Virus record (IMG/VR): IMGVR_UViG_3300042356_001581
Origin: an uncultured virus (IMG/VR IMGVR_UViG_3300042356_001581)
Taxonomy: Duplodnaviria; Heunggongvirae; Uroviricota; Caudoviricetes
Strand: one strand, 5' to 3'
Length of the DNA stretch: 20,000 nt
The position numbers and the translations under genes are program-made. This document shows, one piece after another, positions 5,870-20,000 of this stretch (the stretch's first letter is position 1; every line of letters begins with the position of its first letter). Below the pieces are notes generated by a model. That model did not search any database and was not told the DNA's origin. It saw only the letters and a program-made list of their open reading frames with translations.

Positions 5870-5994
5870 TAACAGCTTGTATAGTTAATGCGGTCTATGG
5901 CTTAATTTATTGTTCAGTTTGCACTTGGATTGTTCGGTCTTGAATGGAATTATTCGGCTTATTTTTCCGCACTAACCATATAAGCGAACCGTTA
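5870..5994 (+). repeat. Hairpin site A1
   Basis: TAAC-agcttgtatagttaatgcgg ... ccgcactaaccatataagc-gaacc-GTTA. Confidence 0.85.
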
Positions 5995-6008
5995 TATACA
6001 ATAAAAAT

Positions 6009-6386
6009 TTACCATCGCTCTTTTTTGAATATAATTTGTTTATCTAATTTTATTTGATGTATGGTGTGAAATGTCCGTTCTTTTACATATTTTTTAAATG
6101 TGTTGAAAACTTCTTCCGATACCATTTTACTTTTCACATAATAAATATATGGACTTTTACCACTCATATCATCTCTCCACATATTAAAACCATATCTTTC
6201 CCCATTAGGAAAATTATGTCTATGTTCGTGAATTAAATTATATTTTTTTGATTTAGCTTTATATGGTTTAAATTTACTAATAGCATCTACCATTAATTTA
6301 ATATTCTCAATATCATTTTCATCCACATCTGATTTAAGATATGTGAAATCACCATCATTTGTATCAACTTTTATATTTATTATCAT
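6009..6386 (-). CDS. Cassette 2: hypothetical protein
   Basis: 125 aa ORF bounded by IR gttatatacaataaaaat / atttttactgtatataac. Confidence 0.7.
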   Translation of the reverse strand: MIINIKVDTNDGDFTYLKSDVDENDIENIKLMVDAISKFKPYKAKSKKYNLIHEHRHNFPNGERYGFNMWRDDMSGKSPYIYYVKSKMVSEEVFNTFKKYVKERTFHTIHQIKLDKQIIFKKERW

Positions 6387-6428
6387 AATATTATTTTAAA
6401 ATTATCCAACGCACATTTTTACTGTATA

Positions 6429-6476
6429 TAACAAAGTGTAAAAAACATTAAAACGATTTTTTACACTCAACCGTTA
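6429..6476 (+). repeat. Hairpin site A2 (shortest, 48 bp)
   Basis: TAAC-aaagtgtaaaaaa ... ttttttacact-caacc-GTTA. Confidence 0.8.
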
Positions 6477-6485
6477 TGTGCAAGG

Positions 6486-7292
6486 CTACGAAACTGCATC
6501 TAAACGACTATTCGTTATTTCAATAGCCATTGGATTAATGTCGCAACCTATAAAATTTCGGTTCAGTTCTTTACAAACTACTGCTGTTGTTCCCGAACCT
6601 AAATAGTAATCTGCAACTGTATCACCTTCATTTGAACTTGCTTTTATTATTCGTTCTATTAATGCTTTTGGCTTTTGGGTTGGGTATTTTGAATACTCTT
6701 TTGAATTGCCTTTAAGTGTGTGTATTACCATCCAATCTTCCATAATTTTACCTCCGTTTTTAGATAAAGGGCTGTCGGCTTTACCCATCATTGAGTTACT
6801 TCCATACTTACCTCTTTCTTTACTACTTTCGGAATAATCTGTTAATACGCTTTGCCAATTAAATGTATAATCTTTAGTTTTTGCGTAAGAAAATATATTA
6901 TCGTGTTTTGCATTAAATCTCCTTTTGTTGTTGTTTGGCATAGTGTAGCACCATATAATTTCATTTACAAAATTATCATACCCAAAAATATCATCCATTA
7001 TCAACCTAATCCAATGGGATATTCTATAATCCATTTGTAAATAGATAGTACCTGTGCTTTTTAATACTCGGTGCATTTCTTTTAATCGTGGTAAATAATG
7101 TGCTTCAATTTCACTTCTAATCGGTTTTAAGTCTTGGTAATCTCCAAAGTTTCTGCCAGTTCCATAAAGAATATCACAATAAATCAAATCTACACTTTCA
7201 TCAGGTTGCGACAAAAGGAGTTCAAGGTTATCAACCGCCCTGCACATAACACGGGTTTGGCAAAATGGCTGTTCAGTAATTCTATCAATCAT
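6486..7292 (-). CDS. Cassette 3: N6-adenine/N4-cytosine DNA methyltransferase (beta class)
   Basis: Motif IV-like CDILYG at the N-terminus, YPTQKP, motif I DYYLGSGTT, FIGCDIN. Confidence 0.88.
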   Translation of the reverse strand: MIDRITEQPFCQTRVMCRAVDNLELLLSQPDESVDLIYCDILYGTGRNFGDYQDLKPIRSEIEAHYLPRLKEMHRVLKSTGTIYLQMDYRISHWIRLIMDDIFGYDNFVNEIIWCYTMPNNNKRRFNAKHDNIFSYAKTKDYTFNWQSVLTDYSESSKERGKYGSNSMMGKADSPLSKNGGKIMEDWMVIHTLKGNSKEYSKYPTQKPKALIERIIKASSNEGDTVADYYLGSGTTAVVCKELNRNFIGCDINPMAIEITNSRLDAVS

Positions 7293-7366
7293 TCGTTTTT
7301 AATTTTAAAGTTTAGTAATTCTATTTAGCTTCGGGTTCAGCCACTTCACCAAGCCCGATAACGTTA
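7247..7366 (+). repeat. Hairpin site A3 (contains start codon of 6486..7292)
   Basis: TAAC-acgggtttggcaaaatggctg ... cagccacttcaccaagcccg-ataac-GTTA. Confidence 0.88.
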
Positions 7367-7597
7367 GGTGTAATGCCACTCCGCCACTTCACTTCTATCA
7401 AAATGTGTTTGACGTGAAAAATGTTTAGTCCACCAAGCAAAGGCACGAAATGAACCTCCCCATAAATGCTCATAATATCCTCGATACCATTTTTCACCTA
7501 CTTTAAATTTTAACTCGTAATATGATGAAGGCACTACACCTAACAGCACATTGCCAAAAGTGGGGGTTATCGTTTTTAAATCAGCTTTTACACTCAT
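7364..7597 (-). CDS. Cassette 4: hypothetical protein
   Basis: 77 aa; stop codon is the TTA of the GTTA core; start lies in hairpin A4. Confidence 0.65.
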   Translation of the reverse strand: MSVKADLKTITPTFGNVLLGVVPSSYYELKFKVGEKWYRGYYEHLWGGSFRAFAWWTKHFSRQTHFDRSEVAEWHYT

Positions 7598-7666
7598 ATC
7601 AAATTTTGTATTTCAATTAAAGTTTAGTGGTATAAAGCCCCACCTTCGGCAATCTGCAAAACGTTA
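7541..7666 (+). repeat. Hairpin site A4
   Basis: TAAC-agcacattgccaaaagtgggg ... ccccaccttcggcaatctgc-aaaac-GTTA. Confidence 0.88.
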
Positions 7667-7681
7667 GCAGTAATATTGTGG

Positions 7682-7921
7682 CTACTTACCAATAGGTCTA
7701 TTGCAAGTTGCACAGATATAACTACCATTCATTAAATAACATTGAGATTGTTGACAGCCACAATACATACTGCTAACATCGGCTATACGCAAGTTTTTTG
7801 CTTCCGTTAGTCGGTTAATAACATTGTTTGCCTCTATCAACATTTCAATCAATTTGTCTTTTTCTACCATTTGATACATCTCTACTTTTTCAGAGTGTGT
7901 CATTTCAATTACTTGCATCAT
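7682..7921 (-). CDS. Cassette 5: small protein with Cys-rich C-terminus
   Basis: 79 aa; CGC...C...CATC at the C-terminus; first ~49 aa encoded within hairpin A5. Confidence 0.6.
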   Translation of the reverse strand: MMQVIEMTHSEKVEMYQMVEKDKLIEMLIEANNVINRLTEAKNLRIADVSSMYCGCQQSQCYLMNGSYICATCNRPIGK

Positions 7922-7981
7922 ATATTTTAATTTTAGTGTTTCAAATTCGCAAAAAACCTGACGTATAGCCGAGAACCGTTA
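7774..7981 (+). repeat. Hairpin site A5 (longest, 208 bp)
   Basis: TAAC-atcggctatacgcaagttttttgc ... gcaaaaaacctgacgtatagccga-gaacc-GTTA. Confidence 0.85.
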
Positions 7982-7984
7982 TGG

Positions 7985-8287
7985 TTAATATTTGTATTCT
8001 GCTATTTTAGAAGCTAATCCCCAACTTTGCAACTTACCACCGTAGTTAGATATAAATCTAAATACATCGCCCATATAAGTAGGTTCAGATGGTGTATAAA
8101 TATAAGTTCCTGCAATAGTTTCTAATCGTAATTTCCAAGTATGATTATCTTTAAAAACTTTCGCATCGAAACCCATACATAGTTTTAATTCTTCTGCAAT
8201 TAAATTACATTTTTCTTCATTAAACATACTAACCATAACACTCGTTTGGCTCAATGCCTTATTTTCGTTTATATCGTTTTTCATCAC
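7985..8287 (-). CDS. Cassette 6: hypothetical protein
   Basis: 100 aa; start (GTG 8287 or ATG 8284) in hairpin A6. Confidence 0.65.
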   Translation of the reverse strand: MMKNDINENKALSQTSVMVSMFNEEKCNLIAEELKLCMGFDAKVFKDNHTWKLRLETIAGTYIYTPSEPTYMGDVFRFISNYGGKLQSWGLASKIAEYKY

Positions 8288-8352
8288 GTTTTATTTTTAA
8301 TTAGATAATTTAGTTTTCATAACTCGGCACTAAGCCAAGCGAGGGAACGTTA
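8236..8352 (+). repeat. Hairpin site A6
   Basis: TAAC-actcgtttggctcaatgcc ... ggcactaagccaagcgag-ggaac-GTTA. Confidence 0.88.
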
Positions 8353-8571
8353 GCAACTATGCTCTAATTTGTATATTTTCTCTATTTCATCTACTCTTAA
8401 TGGGTCACAATATCTACCTCTTTGATAATTAACAACTCTAAATATGTATTTTTCGGTTAATTTATGTCTTTCTTCCCAATTGACTTTATTCCACCAAGCA
8501 ATAGCACAATTGCTAACAGCATTTTGTGGCAATTGCGGGGTTTGGATTTCTTTTTCCATTTTAGTTTTCAA
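8350..8571 (-). CDS. Cassette 7: hypothetical protein (likely ATG at 8559)
   Basis: Stop codon is the TTA of the core; start in hairpin A7. Confidence 0.6.
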   Translation of the reverse strand: MKTKMEKEIQTPQLPQNAVSNCAIAWWNKVNWEERHKLTEKYIFRVVNYQRGRYCDPLRVDEIEKIYKLEHSC

Positions 8572-8643
8572 TTTAAAGATTAGTATTTTTTTGTATGGTA
8601 TGTGTTAATTCGTCCGCAACTAACCACAAGATGCAAAACGTTA
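8514..8643 (+). repeat. Hairpin site A7
   Basis: TAAC-agcattttgtggcaattgcgg ... ccgcaactaaccacaagatgc-aaaac-GTTA. Confidence 0.85.
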
Positions 8644-8647
8644 TGCC

Positions 8648-8947
8648 TTATTTTGAAGAACGAGACGAACCAAAAGTTAAGATACCTGCTCCAAGAACAA
8701 AACCGAAGTTATACCAACCTCCATTGTTATTATAAGCATAAAATGCAATATCATCAGAAAATAAACTACCAATAAATGAAATTGGCGCAACTATTCCGTG
8801 CCATAAACCGCCCCAAAATCCATAAGGAGAACTTGTAATACAATCTTGTACGTGTGGGCTTACATCGGCACAAGAAGTTAAAGAAAGAAAAACAAGGCAT
8901 AACAGCCATTTGGCAAGATTGCGGGTTAATTTTGTGTTTTGAAACAT
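8648..8947 (-). CDS. Cassette 8: putative lipoprotein/membrane protein
   Basis: Lipobox-like LTSC after a hydrophobic stretch; GFWGGLWHG and GWYNFGF hydrophobic segments. Confidence 0.75.
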   Translation of the reverse strand: MFQNTKLTRNLAKWLLCLVFLSLTSCADVSPHVQDCITSSPYGFWGGLWHGIVAPISFIGSLFSDDIAFYAYNNNGGWYNFGFVLGAGILTFGSSRSSK

Positions 8948-9029
8948 AGTTTTTAAATTTAAAGATTAGTAATATTTTGCGTGTTTGGGTCTTGAATCGT
9001 CCGCAACCTCGCCAAGTGGCAGGACGTTA
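8900..9029 (+). repeat. Hairpin site A8
   Basis: TAAC-agccatttggcaagattgcgg ... ccgcaacctcgccaagtggc-aggac-GTTA. Confidence 0.88.
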
Positions 9030-9038
9030 GGCGCAATG

Positions 9039-9215
9039 CTAATCCAAGACACCTGCCAACCAAATTGGACAAAATATAAGCCAGTACAAAAATCGTTCTT
9101 GTAAACTGACTGCTAAGTTGTCTTTACCTATTGTTTTGCAATCATTCCTCCAAATCAAATAGAATGGAATAAAAAGAACTATTTGCAGTAATACACATAT
9201 CAATATTTTGTTCAT
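9039..9215 (-). CDS. Cassette 9: 58 aa two-TM membrane protein (not in the ORF track)
   Basis: Read manually: MNKILICVLLQIVLFIPFYLIWRNDCKTIGKDNLAVSLQERFLYWLIFCPIWLAGVLD*; fills cassette 9026-9249. Confidence 0.7.
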   Translation of the reverse strand: MNKILICVLLQIVLFIPFYLIWRNDCKTIGKDNLAVSLQERFLYWLIFCPIWLAGVLD

Positions 9216-9245
9216 TTTGTTTCAATTTGTGAGAAGCACTGCACC

Positions 9246-9333
9246 TAACAGCACATAGGCAATAGTTGCCAGAAACCTCTCGGTTAATAATTTAATTTAT
9301 CGTAGGCAACCATCGCCTATCTGCAAAACGTTA
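9246..9333 (+). repeat. Hairpin site A9
   Basis: TAAC-agcacataggcaatagttgcc ... ggcaaccatcgcctatctgc-aaaac-GTTA. Confidence 0.88.
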
Positions 9334-9552
9334 TGGTTTATGCTTCGATTGGTTTTCATAAGAACTTATATTTTTGCTCATATTGAAATAAATAATTGTA
9401 AAAACAATTGCTCCAAATGTTACGATTCCCCAATCTCCAATTTTATCAGATGCTTTATATGTAAATAATGCCGTTCCAAACCAACACATAATCGAACACC
9501 ATTTCATTTGTCTTTTAAAGTTTTTCGCTTCTTTAATAAATTCTTCACTCAT
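9331..9552 (-). CDS. Cassette 10: small two-TM membrane protein
   Basis: 73 aa, two hydrophobic helices; stop codon is the TTA of the core. Confidence 0.7.
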   Translation of the reverse strand: MSEEFIKEAKNFKRQMKWCSIMCWFGTALFTYKASDKIGDWGIVTFGAIVFTIIYFNMSKNISSYENQSKHKP

Positions 9553-9583
9553 TACGTTTTCGTTTTATGAACCGCACTAACCA

Positions 9584-9710
9584 TAACAAGTGTTTGGCAA
9601 AAAAGCGGGTTCGGTTATTAATTTAAAATTTGTTTTGTGTCTTTATAATTCAGGCTTAATCGAAGTTTTATGCTTTCTTAATCGCTTCTTCGCCAAGCAC
9701 TCGAACGTTA
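9584..9710 (+). repeat. Hairpin site A10
   Basis: TAAC-aagtgtttggcaaaaaagcg ... cgcttcttcgccaagcact-cgaac-GTTA. Confidence 0.85.
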
Positions 9711-10502
9711 GTGGCAATACTCCGAAGCCCTCCGAACAGCGACATCGTAATATTGTTTTTCCTTTTCTATTCCAATTGATTTGCGATTTAATTTGATACA
9801 AGCCAAGTTTGTTGTACCGCTTCCTGTTGTGTTATCCAATACCATATCACCTTCATTAGTATATGATTTCACAAGCATTTCAAGTAAAGCAAGTGGTTTC
9901 TGTGTTGGGTGTATCGTTCCATCAAGTTTTGTTTTTTGTTTATCTGAAGCAAAAACTTGTACACTTCTTGGGTATCTGTCAGTTTCTCCGCCACCGCTTA
10001 CATCTTGCTTTACTTTTCCATACACTTCTGTTTTATTGCAAACTTCGGCTTTCTTGGTATAGGTATTTACAGGCTTATGTCCTTCTGTTTTTTGTGGATT
10101 AAACTTTGGTGTTTTATTGTAAAATACTAAAATGTTTTCGTGTGCTTTCATAGGCATTTTCTTTGCATTAAAATATCCTGTTGCTTGTGTTTTCTCCCAA
10201 ATCCATTCGTATTTTAACCATTCCAAATTTGAGCAACCAAGCACTTTATCAAATGGTGTTTGTGCAAATAAAATTACCACCCCATTATAATTTAGTATTC
10301 GTTTATATTGTTCCCAAAGTTTATTCAAATCCAAAACAGAATCCCATTTGCAGTTAGTAGTACCATAAGGCAAATCGCAAATAATAGCATCAATTGATTT
10401 ATCCTCAATAAAAGGAAAAACATCGAAACAATCTGCGTTCACAAAAGTACTGCCACTAACACGGGTTTGGCAAAATGGCTGTTCAGTAATTCTATCAATC
10501 AT
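9708..10502 (-). CDS. Cassette 11: N6-adenine/N4-cytosine DNA methyltransferase (beta class)
   Basis: ICDLPYG, YEWIWEK, HPTQKP, LDNTTGSGTT, IGIE. Confidence 0.92.
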   Translation of the reverse strand: MIDRITEQPFCQTRVSGSTFVNADCFDVFPFIEDKSIDAIICDLPYGTTNCKWDSVLDLNKLWEQYKRILNYNGVVILFAQTPFDKVLGCSNLEWLKYEWIWEKTQATGYFNAKKMPMKAHENILVFYNKTPKFNPQKTEGHKPVNTYTKKAEVCNKTEVYGKVKQDVSGGGETDRYPRSVQVFASDKQKTKLDGTIHPTQKPLALLEMLVKSYTNEGDMVLDNTTGSGTTNLACIKLNRKSIGIEKEKQYYDVAVRRASEYCH

Positions 10503-10527
10503 TAGTTTTTAATTTAAAGATTAGTTT
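10457..10527 (+). repeat. Truncated hairpin site A11 (left half, copy of A3)
   Basis: First 47 nt identical to 7247-7293; right arm and GTTA core absent. Confidence 0.75.
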
Positions 10528-10854
10528 TTACTTAGTCGTTATCCGTAACAACAAAATACACCACCCGACTTTATCCGACTTCATAAAATCTTGTATTTCA
10601 GAAATTAGTTGCTCTTTAGTTTCAGTTACAAATTCTTGCCTTCCATCAGGTTGTGGATTTCCATTATTCATTTTGTAGGCAAACCAAATTTTAGCATAAT
10701 ATTCACTACTTTCTTCATCAGGATTTTCCACTATACAAGATTTTATTCTACTATCAAGCGAAGTTATCTCATCAGAAGTAACTGCACCTAACAGTGGTTT
10801 TGACTTATTGCCACATTCGGCTTCATTTAATGATTGTTTTGTACTTGTATTCAT
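10528..10854 (-). CDS. Cassette 12: hypothetical protein
   Basis: 108 aa; start in hairpin A12. Confidence 0.65.
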   Translation of the reverse strand: MNTSTKQSLNEAECGNKSKPLLGAVTSDEITSLDSRIKSCIVENPDEESSEYYAKIWFAYKMNNGNPQPDGRQEFVTETKEQLISEIQDFMKSDKVGWCILLLRITTK

Positions 10855-10917
10855 TGGTTTTTAATTTAAAGATTAGGTCTTATTTTATTGGCAACAAGAC
10901 AAAGCCACCAAACGTTA
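10789..10917 (+). repeat. Hairpin site A12
   Basis: TAAC-agtggttttgacttattgcca ... tggcaacaagacaaagccac-caaac-GTTA. Confidence 0.85.
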
Positions 10918-10926
10918 TGAGCAAGT

Positions 10927-11229
10927 TTACTGACCGTCTTCGTAAAGACTCATTTCAAAACCGTGAGAGTAAAAATCTCCAAGTCCACCCGCATCAATAA
11001 CTATTTTGAAATTATAATCTTCGTGAGAAACTACAATTTGAGTTCCTTCATCATCTTCTATGTTTTCAGTTGGTATTCCAACACATTCTATAAAGTGTTG
11101 CATACTTTGATTATTATCCATACTCATATTATCATTTTCATTAATAATACGATATGATGTTTCTCCTTTTGCAAATTCATCAAACATTTGTGTTATCGAA
11201 TTTGGTATCTCATAAATTTCTGTTTTCAT
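10927..11229 (-). CDS. Cassette 13: acidic hypothetical protein
   Basis: 100 aa ORF; IR gttatgagcaagtt / aacctgctcataac. Confidence 0.7.
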   Translation of the reverse strand: MKTEIYEIPNSITQMFDEFAKGETSYRIINENDNMSMDNNQSMQHFIECVGIPTENIEDDEGTQIVVSHEDYNFKIVIDAGGLGDFYSHGFEMSLYEDGQ

Positions 11230-11263
11230 AATAATATTTTGTTTAAATTACACAACCTGCTCA

Positions 11264-11391
11264 TAACAGCAATTTGGCAATATGTCGGTTTTGGTCTTTA
11301 ATTTAATAGTTGTTTTGTACTTGTAGAAATTCGGTATTTCCGAATGTATTAGCTTCCTTAAACCGACACATCGTCAAGTTGCATAACGTTA
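11264..11391 (+). repeat. Hairpin site A13
   Basis: TAAC-agcaatttggcaatatgtcggttt ... aaaccgacacatcgtcaagttgc-ataac-GTTA. Confidence 0.88.
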
Positions 11392-11400
11392 GTAGCAAGA

Positions 11401-11625
11401 CTACGTTTTATCTTTCAAAGACAAAACCTTGAATGTTGGGTAGCCTTTAGGTATTCCAAAACCAAAACCAATATAAACAGAATGATGTCCCCAACATAAA
11501 CCTATTCCGTAAACACTTACGATTTCTAATATAGTCAATACTCCAAATAAATATGGTGTAATTGCAAAATCTTCTTTATTTAATTTGGTATTTTGATAAC
11601 CTCCTATAATTTTTGGTTTTCTCAT
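11401..11625 (-). CDS. Cassette 14: small hydrophobic hypothetical protein
   Basis: 74 aa ORF filling the cassette. Confidence 0.65.
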   Translation of the reverse strand: MRKPKIIGGYQNTKLNKEDFAITPYLFGVLTILEIVSVYGIGLCWGHHSVYIGFGFGIPKGYPTFKVLSLKDKT

Positions 11626-11662
11626 TTCAATAATATTTAGTTTTAATAATCCGTCCAGCTAC

Positions 11663-11735
11663 TAACACACGTTTGTAGCTAGTGGAGGAATCTACACTTC
11701 CGAATACGCCACCATCTACAAGCGTTGGAAGGTTA
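11663..11735 (+). repeat. Hairpin site A14
   Basis: TAAC-acacgtttgtagctagtgg ... ccaccatctacaagcgt-tggaag-GTTA. Confidence 0.8.
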
Positions 11736-11742
11736 GCAGTAA

Positions 11743-11937
11743 TTATTCCCAATCTTCCTTATCAGCTTGAGTTTCTGCCATTACAGCTATTATTTGCCTT
11801 TCACGTTCTGTAAATTCAAACCAATTAGTTTGCCAATCGTAAGGAACGTAATTTCTCCAATCGTGAACTTTTCCTTTTTCTTCAAACTTTGGATTTTCAA
11901 TATCTATTAATTCTGTAAAATTTTCAAATATGTTCAT
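11743..11937 (-). CDS. Cassette 15: hypothetical protein
   Basis: ATG at 11937 (MNIFENF...) preferred to TTG at 11967; HDWRNYVP motif. Confidence 0.65.
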   Translation of the reverse strand: MNIFENFTELIDIENPKFEEKGKVHDWRNYVPYDWQTNWFEFTERERQIIAVMAETQADKEDWE

Positions 11938-11961
11938 CTCGTTTAGTATTATAACTACTGC

Positions 11962-12087
11962 TAACAACGGTTATACAATAGTTGGGTTAATTGTTTAATT
12001 TAAAGTCTGTTTTGTGTCGAGATAATTTGTGTTAATCGGAAAATTACGGCTATCTTATCCCAACCATCGTATAGCCGTCAAACGTTA
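11962..12087 (+). repeat. Hairpin site A15
   Basis: TAAC-aacggttatacaatagttggg ... cccaaccatcgtatagccgt-caaac-GTTA. Confidence 0.88.
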
Positions 12088-12096
12088 GCAGTAATA

Positions 12097-12993
12097 CTAT
12101 ATTCCATCTCCGAATGAAGTCACTACATTAAAATCTTTTTCTTTTCTTTTTTCTTCCACCCTCTTTAAAGAAATATTAAAATAATCCATATTATTCTCAA
12201 TTCCGATAAAGTTCCTATTTGTGTTTATACAGGCAATTCCTGTTGTCATTGAGCCACCAAACATATCTAAAACAGTTTGATATTCTTTTGTGAAAGTTTT
12301 TATTAAGTTTTCCATTAGTTTTAACGGCTTTTGGGTTTCGTGTAACTTGTCTGAAATATGCGAACTTTCTTCAATTAAATTTGTTTTGTAAATTTCAGAA
12401 GAAAAAGTACCTGTACCATACTTCAAATAACAATCTGTAATAGTTCCACCAATCTTATATGGCTTAAACATATACACAATTGGTTCTACTATTGGTGCTA
12501 AATTACCCAATCTTCTATTATCGCTATAATCTGAATTTCTTTTACCTATTACTTGACCTATCCTTTGTGCTTTAAATGGTGCTTTTTTCTTATTCCAACT
12601 AATTACATCTTTTAATATTAGACCGCTATTTTCTCCTGCAACCGTAAACCTATGTTGATATTGCCTTCCTGTAAAACATAATATTGGAGACGCAGGTTTC
12701 ATAATTCGATAACACTCTTTTAAAAAACTTTCGCAAAATATTTGAAATTCAATACTTATTTGCTTGTCTTTATCACTCCATCCATTTTTAGGCTTACCTC
12801 TACTTTTAAATATTTTACTATTTTGTTGCGCAGGGGAACTCCCTAATAATGCAGTATTGGTATTAGAATGTTTAACATCCCAATCACTAAATGAAATCCC
12901 ATAAGGAATATCTGAAATTATAGCATCAATACTTTCATCTGCTATCAATTTCATTTGTTCTATTGCATCTCCGTATCTTAAATCTATTGTCAT
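12097..12993 (-). CDS. Cassette 16: N6-adenine/N4-cytosine DNA methyltransferase (beta class)
   Basis: ISDIPYG, HETQKP, LDMFGGSMTT, FIGIE. Confidence 0.9.
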   Translation of the reverse strand: MTIDLRYGDAIEQMKLIADESIDAIISDIPYGISFSDWDVKHSNTNTALLGSSPAQQNSKIFKSRGKPKNGWSDKDKQISIEFQIFCESFLKECYRIMKPASPILCFTGRQYQHRFTVAGENSGLILKDVISWNKKKAPFKAQRIGQVIGKRNSDYSDNRRLGNLAPIVEPIVYMFKPYKIGGTITDCYLKYGTGTFSSEIYKTNLIEESSHISDKLHETQKPLKLMENLIKTFTKEYQTVLDMFGGSMTTGIACINTNRNFIGIENNMDYFNISLKRVEEKRKEKDFNVVTSFGDGI

Positions 12994-13087
12994 AATTTTA
13001 TTTTAATATTTTGCCATCGCTTTAAAAAAGAAAAGAAAAAGGTTCAGTTCTCCGAATGAGCATTTGTGGTTAATTACCGTACTACTG

Positions 13088-13148
13088 TAACACCACCTAT
13101 ACGCAAGTTTTGTGAAAAACAAAACCTGACGTATAGCTGTAAACGTTA
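13088..13148 (+). repeat. Hairpin site A16
   Basis: TAAC-accacctatacgcaagttttgt ... acaaaacctgacgtatag-ctgtaaac-GTTA; arms related to A5. Confidence 0.8.
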
Positions 13149-13152
13149 GCCG

Positions 13153-13605
13153 TCATTCTAAAACGACCGCATCCAACGACTTTAATCTGTTTAAAATATA
13201 AAGGTTTGGTCTTATGTATTTATTTTCTCTTCTGAATTGTTCTTTGTCGATTTCTGACAAAAATTTATCATACAAAAAAGTTGCAACCGCACCGCTTCGA
13301 GAAATTCCAGCAGAACAATGAACCATAAATACTGACTTTTCTTTATGTTTTTCGATAAAATCAACTATTTCTTTTAGTTCTTTATCATTTGGTTTTTCAT
13401 ATTTTAACTCACCATTTTCATATAAATCTTCTTCAATATCCCACATTTTAACTTGCAGAAAATTGTCTATTGATTTATCAAATTTTTGCTCGTTATTATC
13501 AATATCGAGTATTGAAATAAAACAAGCATAGTCGTAATATTTAAACTCTTTATCAGTAAAGTTTTTATCGAAAACTAATTTTGGTATTGCTTTTATTTGC
13601 TTCAT
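13153..13605 (-). CDS. Cassette 17: protein-tyrosine/dual-specificity phosphatase-like protein
   Basis: Catalytic HCxxGxxRS motif (VHCSAGISRS) and a C-terminal PN motif. Confidence 0.85.
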   Translation of the reverse strand: MKQIKAIPKLVFDKNFTDKEFKYYDYACFISILDIDNNEQKFDKSIDNFLQVKMWDIEEDLYENGELKYEKPNDKELKEIVDFIEKHKEKSVFMVHCSAGISRSGAVATFLYDKFLSEIDKEQFRRENKYIRPNLYILNRLKSLDAVVLE

Positions 13606-13638: not shown

Positions 13639-13756
13639 TAAAAAAGTGTATAAGCAATAACCGTTAGGCGTTTTTAACTATTGCGGTTGTTAATATTTAT
13701 TTTATATTTCTAATCAAGTTTTGTGTTCGGCAACTTCGCCAAGCCTACAAAAGTTA
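13639..13756 (+). repeat. Degenerate hairpin site A17
   Basis: Core reads TAAA instead of TAAC; right end acttcgccaag-cctacaaaa-GTTA does not pair with the left arm. Confidence 0.55.
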
Positions 13757-19124: not shown

Positions 19125-19251
19125 TAACAATATATTGTAGCAATTAAGGCTTTGGTTATTAATTTATTTATGTTCTTGTACTTGGTTTTATTGGGTCTTT
19201 AATCGAAGCATAAGGCTTTCTTATCCTTAACTGCTACAATAATGAACGTTA
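19125..19251 (+). repeat. Hairpin site A19
   Basis: TAAC-aatatattgtagcaattaagg ... ccttaactgctacaata-atgaac-GTTA. Confidence 0.85.
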
Positions 19252-19263
19252 GAGGTAATTTGT

Positions 19264-19485
19264 TTACGCATCTAACCACCTTTCAATTTCATTTGGTTTA
19301 TATGTTTTACCTGCAAGTGCTACCCAAAATTGGTTATGTTTATTAAATTTTAATGGTTGTCTAACCCCATCAGCATAACATATAAACCAAAGATTTTCGG
19401 TAGGTGTTCTATCGTCACCATTAACCCACAAACTACCGCTAACAGCAGGTTTATTCAATGCGGATTTTTCGTTATTATTGTTCAT
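19264..19485 (-). CDS. Cassette 20: hypothetical protein
   Basis: 73 aa; start in hairpin A20. Confidence 0.65.
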   Translation of the reverse strand: MNNNNEKSALNKPAVSGSLWVNGDDRTPTENLWFICYADGVRQPLKFNKHNQFWVALAGKTYKPNEIERWLDA

Positions 19486-19564
19486 TTCTGCTTCTATTTA
19501 ATTTTTTTATTAGTTTGAAATATTGTGCTTCTAAGTCCACACTAAATAAACCTGCGAACCGTTA
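19440..19564 (+). repeat. Hairpin site A20
   Basis: TAAC-agcaggtttattcaatgcgga ... tccacactaaataaacctgc-gaacc-GTTA. Confidence 0.88.
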
Positions 19565-19573
19565 GCAGTAATA

Positions 19574-20000
19574 CTACATTCCATCTACGAATGAAGTTAC
19601 TACGTTAAATTCTTTTTCTTTTCTTTTTTCTTCCACCCTCTTTTTTGAAGTATTGAAATAGTTTTCATCTAATTCAATACCAATGAAATTACGTTTTGTA
19701 TTCATACAGGCAATTCCAGTTGAGCAACTACCCATAGTCAAATCAACAACTAAATTACCCTCGTTGCTGAAAGTCTTTATCAAATCTTCTAAAAGCAATA
19801 TCGGTTTTTGTGTTGGGTGTAATCCATCATAATCTTTTTTGTATTCCAAAACATTGCTTTTAAACTTACCACCTTCCCATAAGTTGAATGTTGCTCTATA
19901 TTTTAAATCCATTTTTTCTATTTCATCAAATGGTTTCAAAAAATAACCAGTAATGCTTAATTTTTCATAATGTTTTTTTATTGGAAAAGCCCATTGCTTT
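19574..20000 (-). CDS. Cassette 21: DNA methyltransferase, C-terminal part (5' end outside the window)
   Basis: Frame open to the window edge; HPTQKP, VDLTMGSCST, FIGIELD. Confidence 0.88.
   Translation of the reverse strand, partial: KQWAFPIKKHYEKLSITGYFLKPFDEIEKMDLKYRATFNLWEGGKFKSNVLEYKKDYDGLHPTQKPILLLEDLIKTFSNEGNLVVDLTMGSCSTGIACMNTKRNFIGIELDENYFNTSKKRVEEKRKEKEFNVVTSFVDGM

Follow-up and report, generated by a model that had tools for sequence, protein, structure and literature searches.

The window studied here (20,000 nt) lies at the very end of a virus record of 139,577 nt and raises the question of how two divergent genes come to begin with exactly the same DNA. The ORFs concerned (6486–7292 and 9708–10502, both on the minus strand) both begin MIDRITEQPFCQTRV and code for N4/N6 methyltransferases, scoring 177.8 and 113.3 bits against PF01555 (gathering cut-off 26.7) with the whole domain covered. 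An earlier note on this DNA had described the two bodies as divergent, and their products are indeed 28% identical (70/249 aa). The shared start is a 47-mer at 7247–7293 and 10457–10503; as had been reported, the identity is exact, and it does not extend on either side. When the window was block-shuffled 100 times, exact repeats reached at most 19 nt. Read on the minus strand, the 47-mer is the ATG plus 15-residue leader of both methyltransferases. The earlier note had also held that identity stops at the TAAC core. This is correct for the side facing the bodies, where it ends at the T, but at the other end, the ATG, one changed base interrupts the match and there is no junction.

The two copies differ in what surrounds them (Table 1). 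An identical hairpin leader had been proposed for both; copy 1 does belong to a full hairpin, with a 4-nt one-sided bulge and the better fold on the bottom (minus) strand, but copy 2 has no right arm, no GTT, no hairpin fold and no left end of a next cassette. Its loop continues with small changes to about position 10527 and then abuts the stop codon of ORF 10528–10854, which is now fused to cassette B with no site between. This ORF had neither a Pfam nor a PHROG match, and a search for an undeleted relative gave no DNA match and four protein matches that were weak or confined to the leader region; its hairpin sits on another body in locus L255. Twenty nucleotides of the copy 2 loop (10505–10524) are the same as in the loop of the next hairpin (10857–10876). 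Since 18 DNA runs hold 93–99% of the words of 9600–11000 (14 flagged as a possible source, 4 not), copy 2 is unlikely to be a misassembly. Its right arm was lost at a later stage, and it is predicted to be immobile on its own.

Table 1. Features of the attC-like array and of methyltransferase cassettes A and B (window coordinates)
Feature	Position	Strand	Remarks
Main array	5871..13147	+	15 complete attC-like sites plus copy 2 half site; genes on minus strand
Two further sites of the same kind	19126..19563	+	
GTT and left end, cassette A	6473..6485	+	Putative canonical crossover at G|TT
Methyltransferase A, 268 aa, PF01555	6486..7292	-	Start codon inside hairpin loop
Outer arm, cassette A	7238..7247	+	9/10 bases complementary to 6476-6485
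Copy 1 of 47-mer: TAAC core, left arm, first part of loop	7247..7293	+	Minus strand: ATG and 15 leader codons
Complete hairpin site, cassette A	7247..7366	+	Core 7247-7250, right arm 7338-7358, GTT 7363-7365
GTT and left end, cassette B	9707..9719	+	Overlaps stop codon
Methyltransferase B, 264 aa, PF01555	9708..10502	-	Start codon within loop remnant
Outer arm, cassette B	10448..10457	+	9/10 bases complementary to 9710-9719
Copy 2 of 47-mer	10457..10503	+	Core, left arm and partial loop only
Copy 2 loop remnant, AT-rich	10504..10527	+	On minus strand, upstream of ATG
108-aa ORF	10528..10854	-	Started in loop of site 10790-10916

The 47-mer belongs, as left arm, to a widespread family of attC-like sites, in which the predicted start codon of the cassette gene lies on the opposite strand. 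Scanning the 139.6-kb genome for strict geometry revealed 16 sites on the plus strand, all within 13.6 kb (125.4–139.0 kb), and one on the minus strand; a looser listing contains 17 complete sites in the window. A site consists of an outer arm, AAC, a single A, an arm, an AT-rich loop, the second arm, a bulge of 4–5 nt and GTT. In the predicted folds the bulge is one-sided and accompanied by a 1×1 mismatch, and there are no single extrahelical bases. The copy 1 site by itself folds only weakly better than its shuffles (z = −1.18; 23 of 200 shuffles do as well); the case for a hairpin rests on the site family. An Rfam covariance-model search of the window returned no match at E values up to 1.

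The ten bases preceding AAC are complementary, at 7–9 positions, to the ten following the preceding GTT in 14 of the 16 window cassettes; of the other two, one probably has a 1-nt deletion and one is a non-adjacent pair. That the outer arm pairs with the left end of its own cassette, which had been noticed before and is borne out for A and B alike, is therefore what the ordinary integron rule predicts (PMC5027507). Among the fetched loci, with left ends counted from adjacent sites, own-end complementarity reached at least 8/10 in 129 of 180 adjacent pairs, compared with 5/180 for the end of the next cassette. At position 8, outer arms mostly have G (296 of 348) and left ends A (319 of 348), a combination that forms a G·T pair on the bottom strand only, and the bottom strand gives the better fold for 14 of 15 sites in circular form. 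Viral and host loci differ in gene arrangement: in viral loci, a bottom-strand ORF runs from the loop through TAAC into the body at 134 of 237 sites, whereas 13 of 24 host sites are associated with top-strand genes and five show the viral arrangement. Multi-site loci are mostly single-oriented (77/86).

Several other features of this virus deserve mention. The site at 7775–7980 is 206 nt long, its loop holds most of a 79-aa ORF, and its right arm has 17 nt in common with the short site 13089–13147. A third N4/N6 methyltransferase is encoded at 12097–12993 and a 121-aa C-terminal fragment of a relative at 19574–19939; the left ends of these two cassettes have 104 nt in common at 89%. A dual-specificity phosphatase-like ORF (13153–13605) adjoins a degenerate site with its GTT near 13663. 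Outside the window, the region 35000–75000 of the virus genome (L384) is rich in small membrane-anchored ORFs and also encodes a 271-aa ATPase whose only matches are weak (phrog_2666, E 3e-5); no capsid family was found among the five proteins scanned.

How widely the arm is distributed was assessed with a 25-nt piece of it as query, which matched at least 122 IMG/VR stretches (about 140 estimated) and 17 genome-contig stretches. From the 126 matches, 123, 119 or 116 distinct rows were used after loci with insufficient flank had been left out; locus L199, a CRISPR spacer, does not enter the body counts. Among the matches listed, the arm is joined to 46 clusters of body ends in 119 distinct loci, and 19 of these clusters (85 rows) have a methyltransferase motif, as called with regular expressions that we take to describe such motifs, cytosine-C5-type motifs included. 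The leader is thus not tied to one methyltransferase lineage, and divergence is abrupt at the core rather than gradual, in both respects as the earlier note had supposed. Within the same set of listed matches, the exact 47-mer recurs in 48 of 116 loci outside the window and in 20 of 45 clusters.

This distribution bears on gene conversion between the two copies, which had been offered as an alternative source of their identity. The copies lie 3.2 kb apart in a RecT-encoding genome, and the 20 nt shared by the copy 2 loop and the loop of the next site fit such a process. Nevertheless, A and B occur with this hairpin apart from each other in other genomes (16 and 26 loci, respectively, among the matches listed), B being present in cultured Muminvirus phages, and with so many exact 47-mers elsewhere conversion within the window becomes unnecessary. 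We therefore regard it as very improbable; it is largely refuted for the 47-mer, and could explain the 20-nt loop match. Most likely, cassettes A and B came separately, the commonest hairpin already being attached to each. Thirteen GenBank records of cultured Muminvirus phages match the stretch from TAAC to GTT at 96.7%; in the three records opened, the hairpin heads a B-type methyltransferase, and the Flavobacterium hosts of these phages carry the hairpin too. The 170-kb contig IMGVR_UViG_3300043411_001575 has at least six A- or B-type cassettes (L004, L016, L017, L039, L128, L161), with B on two different hairpin families. The contigs from RNA runs are 85–99% relatives from other organisms, in which strand and start are not visible.

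Owing to a 1-nt indel in the loop, a second leader exists whose frame differs, so that one and the same arm is read in two frames. In 30 of the 32 classes with a single frame, the loop and the body are in the same frame (23, 2, 0, 7; p 1e-5). Of the 50 cluster/frame classes, 14 lack a long open frame through the join, and several bodies of this kind have a start of their own. A functional, conserved leader peptide was rejected on account of the two reading frames and these 14 classes. The idea of an exchangeable hairpin/leader module is supported, with the qualification that the unit is the whole hairpin and not the peptide.

The reverse view is provided by the B end, which as sole query matched 41 viral and at least 122 metagenome stretches, corresponding to 149 distinct rows. 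In these 149 listed loci it occurs on at least nine hairpin families, represented by 106, 19, 13, 6, 1, 1, 1, 1 and 1 loci; eight of the nine supply an in-frame Met, and the site at 8237 in the window belongs to one of the nine. For the A end, 23 of 26 loci have the main family, two other families occur once each, and the remaining locus has a deletion. Considering all strict sites, 11 of the 27 body ends seen at least twice have at least two families (15/27 by a looser count), and at six of these 11 the bodies are ≥83% identical over 150 nt. In 14 of 21 pairs of B families, only one nucleotide after AAC, the single A, is identical; in the cleanest body–hairpin joins TAACA is the sole common sequence, and the new stems pair starting with their first bases. 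Loci L150 and L162 have unrelated hairpins despite 98.6% identity across 700 nt, and L144 and L350, identical in 321 of 321 nt, also differ in their hairpins. Since crossover is possible in the conserved first 20–60 nt of B, such near-identical pairs do not count as separate core events. What remains is a minimum of eight core joins for B and two for A.

Taken together, the arm on 46 body ends and the B end on nine hairpins, both among the matches listed, provide reciprocal evidence for the exchange at TAAC that the earlier note had suggested: hairpins and gene bodies probably re-assort at this core. The sequences show two points of re-assortment, a frequent, canonical one at GTT, where a body together with its own hairpin meets a new neighbour, and a rarer one within TAACA, at which bodies change their hairpin; neither alters the 13-bp inverted ends of the body. 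Canonical GTT shuffling cannot give the reciprocal pattern, because body and hairpin stay together. In pairs with the same body and hairpin, which are not independent of one another, the right neighbour was different 4193 times and the same 8 times, and a pure hairpin swap with both flanks kept is represented by one ambiguous pair only. Frequent inversion of bodies between hairpins was rejected, as the asymmetry at position 8 is preserved. The B-type methyltransferases themselves (L123–L163, L259–L380) are conserved in the first ~35 and the last ~10 residues and highly variable in the middle, which suggests that a specificity region may be exchanged between fixed cassette ends.

The combinations would require no swap if a hairpin were attached anew whenever a cassette is born, the B end having been captured several times; such an origin is assumed for the uniform attC families of sedentary chromosomal integrons. 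One hairpin on many unrelated bodies is a known pattern of chromosomal integrons (PMC5027507), and cassette genesis has no accepted model (PMC4792948; this and the other papers are cited from the parts of their texts that were available). Yet the same body end and outer arm, with a 9/10 left-end match where visible, recur under different hairpins, at least six body ends are found on different hairpins, and identical cassette ends would need to be rebuilt each time. On balance, repeated birth seems improbable to us.

Assembly chimeras at repeated hairpins might also produce apparent combinations; most loci are metagenomic contigs, and five of the nine B families are known from a single contig. 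An overlap of 5 nt is insufficient for k-mer assembly misjoins. Three of the alternative B families are each known from several distinct loci (19, 13 and 6), and the region 9600–11000 is represented in the 18 DNA runs mentioned above, including the four not flagged as possible source. Chimeras are thus the explanation to which we attach the least credence.

For the joining itself, our preferred reading, to which we assign a probability of roughly 0.57, is that an IntI-like tyrosine recombinase of the host re-joins hairpins and bodies at the TAAC core, using the second side of the folded site. The bottom strand would fold, and the host enzyme would usually cut at AAC opposite GTT, the other arm being cut at lower frequency. 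Body i would then receive the hairpin of cassette j in one of two ways, by two folded sites undergoing a second strand exchange or by top-strand recombination at the TAAC core, with orientation and inverted ends kept. As viral genes start inside the loop, a swap would give the body a different leader and ribosome-binding region, and selection would keep in-frame fusions; translation from the loop ATG is predicted. Against this route, the virus has no PF00589 match, i.e., no tyrosine recombinase, but encodes RecT, and the role of the enzyme is one that we infer.

RecT is also the basis of another reading, in which RecT or replication slippage causes microhomology crossovers anywhere in the sites, and selection for a stem and an in-frame start makes the survivors cluster at TAAC. 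It gains plausibility from hairpins with mismatched arms, which show homologous crossovers inside their loops (L025, L064, L072/L200, L197 and, probably, copy 2); besides, some swaps have 3–5 nt or more in common after AAC, and identical outer arms are in mild excess within hairpin families (1.9%, or 6.4% without the main family, vs 0.6% between). However, many joins share TAACA only, as in the 14 B family pairs described above, and the main hairpin bears many different outer arms. Overall, outer arms from one family resemble each other hardly more than those from different families (2.18 vs 2.05 of 6 variable positions), indicating that long homology is not required. The persistence of broken-stem hybrids in the data argues that selection against broken stems is not strict. 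Microhomology is unlikely to account for the pattern, though of the competing readings it is the foremost.

A candidate for the enzyme of the preferred, recombinase-based reading is encoded by a Bacteroidetes MAG (G001), in which cassette A is part of an array of top-strand genes on the chromosome (L206). A gene for a 544-aa tyrosine recombinase (L220), with the same orientation, is located some 17 kb upstream of it. L220 scores 194.5 bits on TIGR02249 (cut-off 265). Its best solved relative is VchIntI4, and at the position of the IntI insertion L220, the one enzyme aligned, has 21 residues vs 64 (about 43 aa shorter). Relatives were found in 49 of 151 genomes of the same phylum at E 1e-60. 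Among 30 loci of L220-type recombinases, 16 have an attC-like site within ~1.5 kb; ten sites are downstream on the same strand and five upstream on the opposite strand, and one further locus has a site without an intact motif. No site was found within ~1.5 kb in the other 14 loci, including L225, where the array starts ~17 kb away. Control tyrosine recombinases had a nearby site in 0 of 8 cases, with flanks that were shorter (200–900 nt downstream). Shorter relatives of ~280–320 aa (L236, L242, L245, L253, L254) have their sites upstream on the opposite strand, as in the classical integron layout, and the longer host recombinases with a site have it mostly downstream on the same strand. Bacteroidota as hosts are supported by a CRISPR spacer in a Bacteroidales MAG (L199:7995–8030, minus strand) which matches the TAAC junction, the left arm and an outer arm; a spacer against a common hairpin would target many unrelated viruses simultaneously.

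Tentatively, an insertion-less recombinase of Bacteroidota might complete both strand exchanges on folded sites, the hairpin with its site, ribosome-binding region, start and leader being the mobile part. In classical integrons, cassette and attC stay together, and there is an active block on the second strand exchange (PMC4792948); natural re-assortment at the other core would point to an integrase that kept, or never lost, the second exchange. If so, viruses would build genes combinatorially and tune methyltransferase expression, and any gene between 13-bp inverted boxes would become a cassette by gaining a hairpin, which would be a route of cassette genesis. This offers a testable handle on how genes acquire their sites, a step for which no model has been accepted so far (PMC4792948). 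For the viruses, it would mean a common pool of gene starts and anti-restriction methyltransferase bodies that moves between 38-kb siphoviruses, 140–220-kb viruses and host chromosomes.

Phage attC clusters carrying methyltransferases are already known; the reciprocal exchange of hairpins and bodies is what is new here. Qi et al. (2023; PMC9892861) described attC-like clusters without integrase in lytic phages, which carry orphan methyltransferases; the CALIN of Polaribacter phage P12002L, for example, contains two methyltransferase cassettes. The virus studied here resembles them in having at least two sites and no integrase, and methyltransferases A and B have close known counterparts among the orphan phage N4/N6 methyltransferases (PF01555, phrog_67). 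The available text of that paper does not mention genes that start within a site, fused leaders or an exchange of hairpins. In Riemerella anatipestifer, homology-independent gene uptake involves a downstream attC-like stem-loop (PMC13148043): here, too, a Bacteroidota gene moves with a hairpin of ~140 nt downstream and without flanking homology. The gene of that system is on the top strand, and no enzyme is named in the accessible part of the paper; the likeness is one of description. Muminvirus gp006 shares the leader, the hairpin and the B-type ends. The methyltransferase content of these phages has been linked to plating efficiency (PMC7077304), and the portion of text on the methyltransferase region does not describe cassettes or hairpin sites. 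Neither hairpin exchange nor this Bacteroidota system was described in the literature searched, which comprised few subscription journals and no supplements, and the available parts of PMC13616975, PMC12901181, PMC8946536 and PMC8138268 contain nothing on hairpin exchange.

The closest relatives in organization are the classical integrons (IntI; class 1, Vibrio). Both have inverted AAC...GTT cores, cassette ends that are complementary in the circular form, a more stable bottom strand with G·T pairs, a change of neighbour at G|TT, and one family of sites common to unrelated genes. Classical attC sites have an unpaired spacer of 5–6 nt on both arms and 2–3 extrahelical bases near the L box (PMC5027507), whereas the predicted folds of the viral sites show a one-sided bulge of 4–5 nt and no single extrahelical bases. 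Unlike attC, the viral sites also have a 13-bp outer box with a fixed mismatch. The classical cassette gene is located on the top strand and ends before the site, the viral genes are on the bottom strand and start in the loop, and a second point of re-assortment, at the TAAC core, distinguishes the viral arrays. Classical IntI carries an insertion, which is missing from the enzyme linked here (L220, the one aligned). In IntI, the second cut is blocked by the I2 domain together with the extrahelical bases (PMC4792948, PMC3458562), and loss of the latter favours top-strand recombination (PMC5027507). Given predicted folds without single extrahelical bases and an aligned enzyme without the insertion, these brakes on the second cut seem to be missing here. 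In assays of IntI1, top-strand and L-box events are rare (PMC5027507, PMC4792948). Like the viral swaps, these events would have their crossover on the TAAC side of the site; they stem, however, from attI × attC laboratory assays and yield inverted cassettes, whereas in the viral swaps the orientation is kept and the products are common in nature.
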